Assembly: GCA_965203325.1 (NCBI GenBank)
Contig: OZ241875.1
Location: forward strand, 1,728,001-1,792,000
Reading direction: 5' to 3'
Origin: a bacterium
GTDB taxonomy: Bacteria; UBA8248
DNA: 64,000 nt
Positions 57,648 to 61,555 of this stretch are shown in pieces. How positions within the stretch are numbered: position 1 is the first letter of the stretch; every line of letters starts with the position of its first letter. The position numbers and the translations under genes were made by a program. The notes beneath the pieces were generated by a model that was not told the DNA's origin, did no database searches, and was given only the letters and a program-made list of their open reading frames with translations.

Positions 57648-57872
57648 ATGAAGAATAACAGAGAAAAATTCGTTGACTTGGCGAATAAGCGAGTTAATCG
57701 GACCCTTAAATGCATCAAGTTAATAGGAAATCTATCGAACCGCTCCAATTACCAATATACAGAGCAGGATATAGAGAAAATTTTTGACGCTTTGCAGAGC
57801 GAGATAAAAATTTGCCGGAACAGATTTCGAAGTAATGGAAAAGATAATGAAAAGGAATTTATACTTGAATAA
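57648..57872 (+). CDS. small helical hypothetical protein (74 aa)
   Basis: REKFVDLANKRVN...LIGNLSNRSNYQYTEQDIEKIF; G-rich RBS; leads the island operon. Confidence 0.8.
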   Translation: MKNNREKFVDLANKRVNRTLKCIKLIGNLSNRSNYQYTEQDIEKIFDALQSEIKICRNRFRSNGKDNEKEFILE

Positions 57873-57902
57873 TTCTTAATATCCCTACACGAGGACATAT
57901 AG

Positions 57903-60356
57903 ATGAATAATAAAGACCCTAAAGATTTATGCTTGAACCTACTGAAAGCTGATTCAGAAGAAAAAGTAATTCAAATTCTTAGAAACGAAAATTATTGGGA
58001 TGACCCAGATTGTTGGCGTTATTTCGATGATAACCCAGGCAACTTTAGCACTTGTGGAAATCAGCAGAGTAGGCCGGACTACGCCCTGGTTGAAAAAGTC
58101 GTAAATTCACTGGACGCTATATTGATAAGAAAGTGTCTTGAAGAGGGTATTAACCCCGAGGACAAAACTTCACCTCGCTCAGTCAGGGAAGCTGTTGCTA
58201 CATTTATTGAAAACTCTCCAAATCCTAAGGGTTCCAGAGCCGGTCTGATTTCTGAATGGGGAAATAAAAAAATAGCTGAAGAATCTCGGCATATTACCAT
58301 TGCCACTACCGGATTTATACCTTCGGATAAGCGGCAACCCTGCATAACAATCACCGATGCAGGCGAAGGACAAACTCCTGCGGAAATGCCAAATACATTC
58401 TTATCAAATACAGGTAACAACAAGGCAAAAATTCAGTTTGTGCAAGGCAAATGGAAAATGGGTGGTACAGGCGTATTAGTATTTAGTGGCCATCACAACT
58501 TCCAATTCATATTGAGTAAAAGATGTCCAGCTATAATGGAAGACAAAAAGAATGAATCAGATAACTAATGGGGTTTTACTATTATCAGAAGGCGAGATCC
58601 TCGGGATGATGAGCGGGTTTCAGTATATGAATATTTAGCTCCATTAAGAGTCACAAATCAGAAAAATGGAGTTTTGAGATTTGCAGCTAGTTCCCTTCCG
58701 ATTTTTCCTGAGGGACGCGAGGCGTATAAAAGAAAGGCCGAATGGGGCAGTGTCGTAAAAGTATACGAGTACGCCACCCAAGGTTTTGGGAGGTCTCATA
58801 TCTTAAGGTCGGACGGGCTTTTCGATAGGATGAATCTTCTTTTACCTGATATAGCTTTACCTATTAGGTTGCACGAATGCAGAAAAAAATACCGAGGGCA
58901 CAGCGCTAGCTTTGACACGTCATTAACTGGGCTAACGGCAAATATTGAATCAAAAAAGGATGAAAATCTCGAAGACATTTTCACATGTCCGATCGATGCC
59001 ACAGGTGAAAAACTAAATGTAAAAATTTACGTGTTCAAAAAAGACAAAGCGAAAACTTACAAAAAAAGTGAAGGAATTCTTTTTTGCGTCAACGGTCAAA
59101 CACACGCACACGTGAGTAAAAGTTTTTTTAGAAGCGAAAAAGTTGGCCTTAGCTATCTGGCTGATTCTATTTTGATAGTTCTTGACTGTAGCAACATGAA
59201 TAAAAGAAGTAGAGAAGACCTTTTTATGAACAGCAGAGACAGACTAAATAAAGGTTTGCCTATATACAAAGAGATTATAGATGCTCTGGTCGACATGCTG
59301 AAAAATCATAAGAGCATTAGAGCTCTTAACGATAAAAGGCGTGATGAAAAATTAGGGGACCAATTAAAAGATAACAAACCTTTAGAAAATATTTTAGAGG
59401 ATTTAGTCAAAAAGAATAATATGTTGTCGAACTTGTTTCGCTCAGGTAGAGCTATACCCACTAACAAAAACAAACCAGGGCCAATCCCCAAACAGGAATT
59501 CATAGGGAAAAAATTTCCCACATTTTTTAGGTTTAAGAACAAGAAAGATGGGGATTCTCTAATAAAACCATGCCCTTTTAACTCAAGATTTAGAGTTACC
59601 TTTGAGACTGACGCCACAAACGAATATTTCAAGCGTGATATTGATCCAGGAATGTTTAACCTAAAAGTCATTTCCAATGGGGTAGGAACTCCCGCGCATA
59701 ATTTTATTGGGCCAAACTTAAGTGATGGCGAAGCAACCCTCAGTGTCAAATTACCTGACAATTTTGATGTGGGAGACCGCTTCGAGATGCGGGCTGAAAT
59801 AGACGACATTAATTGTGTAGAACCTTTTCAAAATACCATAGAAGTAATCGTAGAGAAGGAAATTCCTAAACCAACTAATCCTAATCCTTCACCACGATCT
59901 AAAAAGGAGAAAGGAGGAATAGCACTACCTAAAATTAAAAAGGTAAAGAGAGCGGAATGGGGAGAGTATGACTTCGACGAAAATTCGGCACTTCGAATAG
60001 AACGAGCTGGTGCGGAAGAAAATGAAACCTATGACTTCTTCATTAACGTAGACAATCAATATCTCCTGAGCGAGATGAGAATGACAAAAGACAATCCTGA
60101 ACTGAAACAAGCGCGATATGTTTTCGGGCAAGTTATCCTTGCTTTAGGTCTTATACAAAACCACTCCCAACGCGATAAAAGAAAAAGTGCGGAACAAGAA
60201 ACCGAATACAATGCAGAAGACAATGGAATAGAAAGCTCAGTTGCACAGGTTGGGCAAGCCATATCACCGGTAATTATTCCAATGATCGAATCGTTAGGCA
60301 CTTTAGACTTAGAATCCATTCAGGCGTTTGCGTCCGATATCTATGATGACGATTGA
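57903..60356 (+). pseudogene. ~817-aa protein with an N-terminal GHKL/HATPase-like domain, interrupted by one in-frame TAA at 58566..58568
   Basis: EKVVNSLDA (N box), ITDAGEG (G1) and QGKWKMGGTG (G2-like); frame continues after the stop as WGFTIIRR... into ORF 58674..60356. Confidence 0.75.
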
Positions 60357-61555
60357 AAATTAGACTTGAGTCTATGAAATAGAACGACTTCTTGGCTGGA
60401 ACGAAGCTTGCCTTTTGAATGTGCGTACCATTTTCTATTTGGCACAATTCGCCACGCTCTTTGGTCTTTAGTATTCGCGAGAGAAGGATATTTGATTTCT
60501 TTAAATCCACAAACACGCATTTCATTAAGATATTTAGGTAGCTGCCACTCAGGGTCAGAAAAGGCTACAAGTTGCACAACTATTGTTTCACTGTCTGAAA
60601 TCTTTGCAAGCGAAGAAAAAGAAGAGCGCAGATTTTTGAAATAATCTACTAGGTATTTCTGCTCACGATTCCCCAATGTGTAATAAGTTTCCCCATTTCC
60701 ATCCAAGGTTCCTGTGATCCAGTACGGTGCGGGAGTTTCTCTCCGACCTTGTATTTGCCATCGATGATATAGGACATGGACTCCAGGGTATGGTGGTGAA
60801 GTTAGAATTAGCTTTGGGGCTTCAACTTTGTTTTTGGAAAAAAAAGTTTTCAGATTAGAGGCGGGCAGACATAAGCAAACAGGATTGATACTCGATTTTG
60901 ACAACCAACTAGGCTTTGTTTCTTTTGCGGATTCTTTGAGAATGGTGGCTCCTGAAACCATTCTCTTGAAATAAAAAATCAGTTTTTCACGAAACTCTTT
61001 TGCTGATGGGATAGCTATTCGAGAATCCAGCGCCCATTGACCTGTCTTAAGAAGGACGCAACGTGCAAAGTTTCTTTGGCGTTGCGTTTTAAGAGAATTT
61101 AACTCAGAAATTGCGAGTGCCAAAAGTTTTCGTATCGGCCAAGTTTGCTTTCCGTTGATATTACGAAGGTATCCATTCTTTTCCCAAGTTGTTTGCAGGC
61201 TTGAAGGTTGACGAAGATTTAATTTGCTTGTGAGTGTCGCAGCCCAAGCGGACAAATCAGAAGCATCATTTTTTGACAACGTAGTTGTCTTCACCTTAGA
61301 TACGAAAATCGACAATTCATTTATATCAGAACCGATTGATTTTCTTCCCAAAGATTGTGCTTCCACTAAAGCTGTTCCGCCCCCCATAAATGGATCAAGG
61401 ATTAAGTCTCCTGGCTCCGTGAACATTTTGATGGCAACTCTAGCAAAGCTTGGTGAACATCGCGCGGGGTAACGATAAAAATCATGAGTCAATCCCGAGA
61501 CCCACGAATGATCATGGATGGCTTTAAGAAAGTCATCCTTGAGTCCATGCTTCAT
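60341..61555 (-). CDS. amino (N4-C or N6-A) DNA methyltransferase, probably m4C
   Basis: HDFYRYPAR, motif I LDPFMGGGT preceding motif IV LTSPPY. Confidence 0.88.
   Translation of the reverse strand: MKHGLKDDFLKAIHDHSWVSGLTHDFYRYPARCSPSFARVAIKMFTEPGDLILDPFMGGGTALVEAQSLGRKSIGSDINELSIFVSKVKTTTLSKNDASDLSAWAATLTSKLNLRQPSSLQTTWEKNGYLRNINGKQTWPIRKLLALAISELNSLKTQRQRNFARCVLLKTGQWALDSRIAIPSAKEFREKLIFYFKRMVSGATILKESAKETKPSWLSKSSINPVCLCLPASNLKTFFSKNKVEAPKLILTSPPYPGVHVLYHRWQIQGRRETPAPYWITGTLDGNGETYYTLGNREQKYLVDYFKNLRSSFSSLAKISDSETIVVQLVAFSDPEWQLPKYLNEMRVCGFKEIKYPSLANTKDQRAWRIVPNRKWYAHSKGKLRSSQEVVLFHRLKSNFQSSS

Follow-up and report, generated by a model that had tools for sequence, protein, structure and literature searches.

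What could a DNA methyltransferase and a large GHKL-type ATPase do as a pair, and why should the two be found side by side in many unrelated genomes? The question is raised by a 64,000-nucleotide stretch of bacterial DNA (contig OZ241875.1, positions 1,728,001 to 1,792,000; hereafter the window), in which an AT-rich insert carries a small gene, S74 (57648-57872, + strand, 74 amino acids (aa), ATG start), a GHKL ATPase gene (57903-60356, + strand, 817 codons) and a DNA methyltransferase gene, here called the methylase (61555-60341, - strand, 404 aa, intact). An original prediction, made from the letters of the window, had taken these genes as a trio forming a candidate defence or restriction-modification (R-M)-like system. 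All three open reading frames (ORFs) lie where it had placed them, the ATPase and methylase genes are convergent and share the 16 bp at their 3' ends (60341-60356) as it had described, and the boxes EKVVNSLDA, DAGEG, QGKWKMGG and TSPPY read as it had quoted them. We find that the conserved unit is the methylase-ATPase pair, not the trio. The cassette is real, ordinary as an insert and without a name as a system, and its function is predicted from sequence.

We examined the neighbourhoods of the ATPase in a species-genome scan that gave 210 confirmed stretches, the best 80 of which yielded 66 loci from many bacterial phyla and one archaeon. A methylase orthologue adjoins the ATPase in 54 of these 66 loci, lying convergent downstream in 48, upstream in 5 and in tandem downstream in 1. 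The reverse test started from metagenome loci of the methylase, at least 578 in number; among the best 80 of them an ATPase stands beside the methylase in 71, eight of the other nine loci end at contig edges, and the ninth has the usual upstream gene close to a contig edge. In viral contigs the ATPase stands beside the methylase in 6 of 9 loci. The linkage persists through inversion and reordering, and in a split subfamily of 11 loci (L147, L165, L171, L180, L183, L184, L197, L203, L205, L208, L228) in which one gene encodes the GHKL domain (~360 aa) and another the S5-plus-rest (~610 aa), both adjacent to the same methylase family. The split, which recurs and at first looked like recoding, proved to mark a divergent two-gene subfamily divided at the GHKL/S5 boundary. 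No nuclease or helicase recurs beside the pair among neighbour clusters present in at least 3 of the 66 loci. S74 precedes the ATPase family in only 11 of the 66 loci and is one of at least six upstream occupants, so an obligate trio was rejected. Thus, of the recurrent linkage foreseen for the large gene, the part concerning the methylase stands, and the part that made the small ORF a fixed third member falls.

The ATPase family is large, with 1,374 full-length relatives among 8,000 candidates; the best 120 of these are almost all 815-870 aa long and carry no Pfam domain. A Pfam scan of 34 members gave sub-threshold HATPase matches for a few only, PADLOC models gave zero matches for the tested members, and PDB sequence searches returned nothing for the ATPase, U394 or S74. 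The AlphaFold model of an intact homologue, P0002 (pLDDT 74, pTM 0.57), comprises a GHKL+S5 module (residues about 43-484), a coil, an Ig-like domain (535-651) and a C-terminal alpha/beta-helical domain (about 670-800). Residues 43-484 match the GHKL+S5 modules of GRP94 (Z 14.9, root-mean-square deviation 4.5, 311 aligned residues), SMCHD1 (Z 13.8), MutL (13.5) and MORC3 (13.0); Foldseek ranks topoisomerase VI-B (TopoVI-B) first for the model (E 2e-9), and structure comparison finds residues 535-651 Ig-like (Z 7-9). The matches to TopoVI-B, GRP94 and MutL support the GHKL-type reading of the large gene. E64, N68, D71, D151-x-G153-x-G155, G181/G186 and the S5 residue R444 are invariant in 74 of 74 aligned rows, and GHL motifs I-III (ExxxNxxDA, DxGxG and the glycine-rich lid) are present in the family together with the S5 basic residue.

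Folded alone, the C-terminal domain (pLDDT 88) consists of three short strands and long helices, and a structure search with it gave zero matches at E 0.001. Its leads are the C-terminal domain of HtpG, which is weak (E 0.67, probability 0.16), a best VIA match at Z 6.8 that covers helices only, and ESM Atlas leads that score no higher than 0.90. The domain lies at or near the end of the protein in the best 150 among 986 profile hits. Conserved polar residues are D568/N571/R576 and D709/N713/D715/N716/E722-x-K724; the last of these, an ExK found in 67 of 74 rows, sits in a helix both in the whole P0002 model and in the C-terminal domain modelled alone, and is absent from the split subfamily and distant relatives. 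Pfam (34 members), PADLOC and fold searches found no nuclease family in the ATPase, as the original prediction had noted for the motifs of the C-terminal region. On these models, the large protein would be a clamp gated by ATP, in which no effector can be recognised.

The window's own copy of the ATPase is a pseudogene. An interruption, hinted at earlier, is present as an in-frame TAA at codon 222 (58566-58568, + strand), within the GHKL domain. Contigs of X1, X2 and X3, runs from two studies (X1 may be the source run of the window), cover it with 0 differences. Among 129 loci spanning the region, the window alone has a stop in residues 200-260; homologues have a sense codon at position 222, most commonly Gln (23 of 58 rows), and the closest homologues, at 83-84% identity, have intact frames. 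The codon is therefore a genuine strain-level nonsense mutation and not programmed. Programmed readthrough or recoding was rejected on the single occurrence of the stop, and assembly error on the agreement of the contigs. Because the stop interrupts the GHKL domain, the ATPase of the window strain is probably dead; its methylase and small ORF are intact.

In the methylase, motif I is N-terminal and the SPPY motif IV C-terminal. It is this order, motif I first and SPPY motif IV later, that defines the alpha group. G58-G59 and S253-P-P-Y256 are invariant in 43 rows, with many further invariant residues between them, and the window methylase matches Pfam N6_N4_Mtase at E 4e-14. These features are consistent with an alpha-type N4-cytosine enzyme whose specificity is shared across the family. 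The methylase often has a small upstream gene of its own, of HTH_17 or ribbon-helix-helix (RHH) type (L012:9865-10089, L061:13806-14057 and similar).

S74 is a basic protein of a family without a name. It has 246 homologues and, by sequence pattern, two helices; it matches no helix-turn-helix (HTH) family, and the ESM Atlas places it in unnamed clusters only. To see what else stands upstream of the ATPase we pooled 116 loci with room for a gene there; by families defined from these loci themselves, and in a pool biased to methylase-bearing loci, the slot holds a 370-430 aa protein in 42, S74 in 26, a ~220-aa protein in 11, AbrB+VapC in 10, DndB in 5, a 132-aa protein in 2 and nothing recognised in 20. 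On the ATPase tree the occupant switches repeatedly, and at least six are interchangeable. In the commonest of them (42 loci, among them L057:3966-5120), which has no Pfam or PDB match, the two ends look RHH-like and winged-helix-like by eye and the middle domain is conserved; the protein might regulate the operon or act as a third functional subunit.

S74 is also found away from this ATPase. Outside the family, S74 directly precedes a GHKL-type gene in 22 of 31 independent loci. On plasmids, where 8 of 14 hits were opened, this was so in all 8; among 401 genomes of one phylum it was so in all 7 readable loci, in two other samples (301 genomes) in 5 of 11 readable loci, and among strong viral hits in 2 of 5. 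For two of these partners, L088 and L121, the GHKL likeness was judged by eye only. PADLOC scores nine partners as PDC-M33A, and when a tenth (L081) is added the paraMORC2 ExxxH is present in 8 of 10; to judge from sequence, PDC-M33 is probably a paraMORC2 operon. S74 is a frequent extra upstream gene of PDC-M33A proteins with GHKL-like boxes (L089, L091, L093, L095, L081, L110-L112, L114, L117). Another GHKL family of ~610-620 aa, without a name, also stands behind S74 (L090:6227-8092, L092:6223-8088, L094:6233-8080, L113:5347-7170), followed on two plasmids by an ATP-binding protein and a UvrD-like helicase. In viral contigs L082, L083 and L084, S74-like genes occur without a GHKL neighbour, and these could be captured repressors or mimics.

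In the DNA upstream of S74 genes a dyad, STAYAT-N7-ATRTAS, was first picked by eye. With at most one mismatch it occurs in 11 of 45 S74 upstream regions versus 2 of 39 controls, other spacings giving 0-5 of 45, and 15 of 45 regions, versus 4 in shuffles, contain two perfect 6-bp arms that are 7 nt apart. A de novo motif trained on 29 regions scored 6.1 on the 16 held out versus 3.3 +/- 0.4 when shuffled (controls 4.1 vs 2.7). The reverse split, trained on the 16, gave a motif containing the -35 element, with no excess over controls (3.93 vs 2.64 shuffled; controls 3.37 vs 1.91). In the window a candidate operator with one mismatch lies at 57506-57524, and a second, with two mismatches, at 57579-57597, between the -35 and -10 of a putative sigma70-like promoter (57575-57603, + strand, 11/12 consensus). 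Given the dyad upstream of S74 genes and this weaker site within its own promoter, S74 is likely an autorepressor of GHKL operons, and its bias for such operons hints at contact with the ATPase.

The insert that carries the three genes spans 57139-61806 and has 39.7% G+C (GC), whereas the genome averages 60.4%; of all 4-kb segments of the genome, the one poorest in GC falls within it. Its AT-richness had been recognised correctly, its length somewhat underestimated (4,668 bp instead of ~4.3 kb). It lies between an ankyrin-repeat gene and a flavin amine-oxidase-family gene, where relatives G012 and G016 have an empty site with 55-58 nt in its place; a contig of run X2 joins 57138 to 61807, skipping the insert, at a depth of 38 versus about 4-6 for the island contigs. 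This joint and the empty sites give the size of the insert and show that it is apparently polymorphic within the population. No clear terminal repeats and no integrase were found in 57139-61806. The cassette is patchy, present in 4 of 22 same-genus genomes in differing gene contexts, and wherever a locus was read the cassette has a lower GC than its flanks; the majority of copies are bare inserts of 4-5 kb. Empty sites, patchy presence and low GC bear out the horizontal mobility of the island.

The ankyrin-repeat gene (56095-57075, 326 aa, with a signal-peptide-like start) is kept at the insertion site in many same-genus genomes. Just upstream of it are a DDE transposase that carries DUF772 and a group of clustered short repeats (54126-55571, 55500-56060), and these repeats are dispersed widely across the genome. 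At L001 the trio adjoins the same amine-oxidase-family gene as in the window, the upstream neighbour differs, and a Fic-domain gene (SoFic / PDC-S04-like; L001:13742-14686) has been added beside it.

How might the pair work? BREX is a phage defence without an evident nuclease. We give about as much belief as doubt to the idea that the mobile methylase and its ATP-gated GHKL clamp form a methylation-guarded, nuclease-free, BREX-like defence, for which we infer the following steps. The methylase would mark one sequence on host DNA, presumably the same throughout the family, because the presumed target-recognition region is conserved across 43 members. The ATPase would dimerise through its C-terminal domain, and its N-terminal gate would close on ATP, as in Hsp90, MutL and MORC. 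It may load on incoming DNA that lacks the mark, with the methylase probably joining it to read the site, a role that would explain why the methylase seldom persists alone. The closed clamp would then block replication or transcription of the intruder by entrapment, not cutting, in the manner of nuclease-free BREX and of the MORCs that are reported to compact DNA. S74 would bind the dyad over its own promoter and repress the operon, a role that RHH/winged-HTH-like, AbrB-VapC or DndB genes may fill elsewhere. More tentatively, and with clear reservations, we propose a fuller version: a two-protein immunity of methylase and MORC/SMCHD1-like clamp, acting by ATP-driven entrapment or silencing without a nuclease, with S74 as a new family of helical repressors of GHKL defence operons that would recognise a TAYAT-N7-ATRTA operator and possibly sense the ATPase directly.

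In favour of the proposal are the reciprocal linkage of the pair, the partly congruent trees given below, the invariant GHKL residues and the fold matches, the lack of a recurrent nuclease or helicase neighbour, the patchy presence, the DNA-modification genes beside distant relatives, and the 2008 prediction for paraMORCs. Several observations weigh against it. Eleven mostly shorter ATPases form one clade without the methylase, the deepest branches lack it as well, and in 10 genomes with a methylase-less ATPase, some of them incomplete, no full-length member of the methylase family was found, only motif-I hits to other methylases. Within the closest 80+9 loci sampled there is one clear solo methylase, L222. 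Solo ATPases together with rare solo methylases are the reverse of what a toxin and its antidote predict, and the methylase-less clade argues against a simple protect-from-toxin model. Trees of 46 ATPase-methylase pairs agree in part (Mantel rho 0.44, where permutations reach at most 0.34; the trees have 14 of 25 supported splits in common); this congruence shows joint transfer and not function, and co-transfer alone suffices for it. The ATPase family was not found in cultured phages and is only distantly present on plasmids. Among flanking genes, 11 of 97 ORFs (of 101 picked, 26 loci) hit PADLOC models, none recurrently and with no control set, several of them being mobile-element or generic hits; enrichment in defence islands is therefore not established. 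Plasmids at E 1e-10 yielded no methylase relative, and a single-sequence viral scan gave no match.

The neighbours of methylase-less ATPases vary. Some members adjoin other modification genes and others stand among housekeeping genes. Two, L047 and L050, belong to a type I R-M cluster, where the gene immediately before the ATPase encodes an N6 methylase with a fused specificity domain. In L075 and L076, from two same-genus genomes, S74 and a short ATPase lie between methionine-synthase-like and trigger-factor/clpX-like genes (by eye), and the L076 copy has an internal TAG. Distant relatives adjoin Dcm/Vsr-like genes (L080, by eye), PAPS-reductase/DUF4007 loci or a DNA methyltransferase. Four of them (L096, L098, L099, L233) stand beside DUF4007, PAPS-reductase or DUF262 genes, an Ssp or BREX-4-like phosphorothioation context, and L096 and L098 also adjoin a double-HATPase 'sensor kinase' gene. 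An SspFGH identity, suspected from plasmid neighbourhoods, was dropped when PADLOC gave no match for those proteins.

The alternative that fares best, which we still consider unlikely, is that the ATPase and its upstream gene are an autonomous defence unit, a sensor or an abortive effector, and that the methylase is an accessory or effector activated or chaperoned by the ATPase instead of a self-mark. The methylase-less clade has intact reading frames and no cognate methylase elsewhere in the 10 genomes, the methylase is almost never alone, S74 accompanies several GHKL families regardless of a methylase, AbrB-VapC fills the upstream slot in 10 loci, and Hsp90 paralogues are among the best fold matches; all of this would suit an ATPase that works by itself. 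However, the pair has its own promoters and is usually convergent, an arrangement that type II R-M loci often show. Loss of the methylase falls in a single clade, two members of which (L047, L050) have another N6 methylase directly upstream, and in the window strain it was the ATPase that broke and the methylase that stayed intact.

In a second alternative a MORC-like clamp would recognise the mark of the methylase and compact or silence marked DNA, a prokaryotic analogue of eukaryotic MORC silencing. In keeping with such a scheme no nuclease was found, SMCHD1 and MORC2/3 are among the fold neighbours, MORC2 has been described as a machine that compacts DNA (PMC12216690), and the near-total dependence of the methylase on the ATPase fits a writer-reader pair. 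Yet the MORC signature is present in 0 of 74 rows, no methyl-reader domain was identified in the family, and a host-wide mark alone would not separate invader from host. We find this scheme improbable. A type II-like R-M system with a cryptic nuclease, in which the ATPase would cut DNA through an unrecognised site in its Ig-like or C-terminal domain, appears very improbable: the ATPase gene does hold the restriction-enzyme position beside an alpha-type methylase, the conserved polar residues include the ExK of 67 of 74 rows, and VcSduA and Tiamat are GHKL-nuclease fusions, but that ExK lies in a helix in both models and is missing from the split subfamily and distant relatives, no Pfam or PADLOC nuclease family matches, and members without the methylase exist. 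Least probable is selfish or non-defence cargo that hitchhikes on mobile DNA; here the methylase would protect its element against restriction by the host, and the ATPase would serve some unrelated purpose. The flank scan described above, frequent lesions (the window, L038, L041, L076, L079) and some copies beside integrases or in viral contigs would allow it, whereas the linkage survives inversion, reordering and even the division of the ATPase into two genes in nature, in many phyla and in archaea, and most copies are bare inserts.

Together our data establish that the pair is reciprocal, that its regulator slot is swappable and that S74 is linked to GHKL genes and has a candidate operator; they also establish the split subfamily and the clade without a methylase. 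The proposed methylation-guarded clamp, if true, would offer a bacterial model for methylation-guided MORC chromatin clamps. With only two genes, the pair is a means to learn how DNA methylation is read by a MORC-like ATPase and whether trapping can replace cutting. S74, for its part, can serve as a compact marker of uncharacterised GHKL operons, which belong to at least three families, and brings a testable candidate operator.

How does the cassette compare with known systems? A PADLOC check of the cassette found no named system, as the original prediction had expected. Type II R-M with an alpha-group m4C (N4-methylcytosine) methylase shares its convergent two-gene layout, the SPPY methylase and a small upstream regulator with a dyad over the promoter. 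Controller (C) proteins are such small regulators in type II R-M. The window family differs in that the partner is an 815-850 aa GHKL ATPase without a recognised endonuclease, the ATPase can stand alone but the methylase rarely does, and S74 matches no HTH family; no type II restriction endonuclease gene recurs in the 66 loci, and no profile of such enzymes matches.

Prokaryotic MORC and paraMORC ATPases come from predicted R-M operons, and the window family would work like the methylase-linked paraMORCs among them. A role of GHKL+S5 paraMORCs in R-M systems was predicted by Iyer et al. 2008 (PMC2292703), who describe a superfamily 2 (SF2) helicase and/or nuclease gene near about 70% of MORC and, in a minority of neighbourhoods, methylases without a helicase. 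MORC and paraMORC1-5 resemble the window family in the GHKL+S5 module with intact motifs, the sporadic distribution and the adjoining DNA methylase. They differ from it in that the window family has no SF2 helicase or nuclease partner (66 loci, flanks of 26 loci), and has an Ig-like and a helical C-terminal domain and one specific alpha-type SPPY methylase partner. The MORC motif GhXhhpXXRhl in S5 is found in 0 of 74 rows, its Arg position being an invariant Gln398. The window family could belong to paraMORC1, described with a distinct C-terminal extension and with MORC or HNH genes beside it (PMC2292703); those described neighbours were not seen among recurrent clusters (at least 3 of 66 loci). 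The ExxxH of paraMORC2 has no aligned instance in at least 10 of 74 rows at residues 400-480. The DUF4263 PD-(D/E)xK of paraMORC3 / Shedu I-D has no Pfam or PADLOC match and no clear match in the fold search, the conserved ExK lying in a predicted helix. The TIR domain of paraMORC4 is in none of 34 members, an adjacent TIR gene occurring once (L164) and not recurrently. As to the HxH of paraMORC5, only one His after residue 500 (position 556) is conserved in at least half of the rows.

VcSduA (Shedu type I-D / paraMORC3; PMC12137116) and Tiamat (10.64898/2026.09.30.754977) are validated anti-phage GHKL clamps, and Tiamat often neighbours methylases. Theirs is a PD-(D/E)xK nuclease domain (DUF4263, DUF3883), with DUF3684 also in Tiamat, whereas none was detected in the window family, in which Tiamat's DUF3684 and DUF3883 have no Pfam or PADLOC match. 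PDC-M33 is a PADLOC candidate system (Payne et al. 2024 preprint) that the main text does not name, and literature searches on PDC-M33 and on DUF6339 found no publication. Its M33A proteins have GHKL-like boxes and are often preceded by S74; the window family (P0002, P0007, L115, L116) has no M33A match and no recurrent M33B/C (DUF6339) neighbour. CapK-CapS (PMC13373217) likewise controls immune operons with a GHKL-fold protein and a small repressor, but the window GHKL protein is a full ATPase module and S74 an unrelated helical protein. The pair differs from Ambrosia, as far as the available part of that source describes it, and no description of it was found in the accessible portion of DefensePredictor. 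Literature searches, covering few subscription papers and no supplements of Payne 2024 or Iyer 2008, found no description of a methylase-GHKL pair.

The likeness to BREX (PMC9122589) is to a model of how the system might work: a methylation self mark, and a methylase with ATPases but no evident nuclease. The pair matches no BREX gene, has two core genes instead of several, and its ATPase is of the GHKL type. In the available text of the 2008 predictions, the links of GHKL proteins and methylases to R-M always involve nucleases or helicases, whereas the window family is reduced to a methylase and a predicted clamp.

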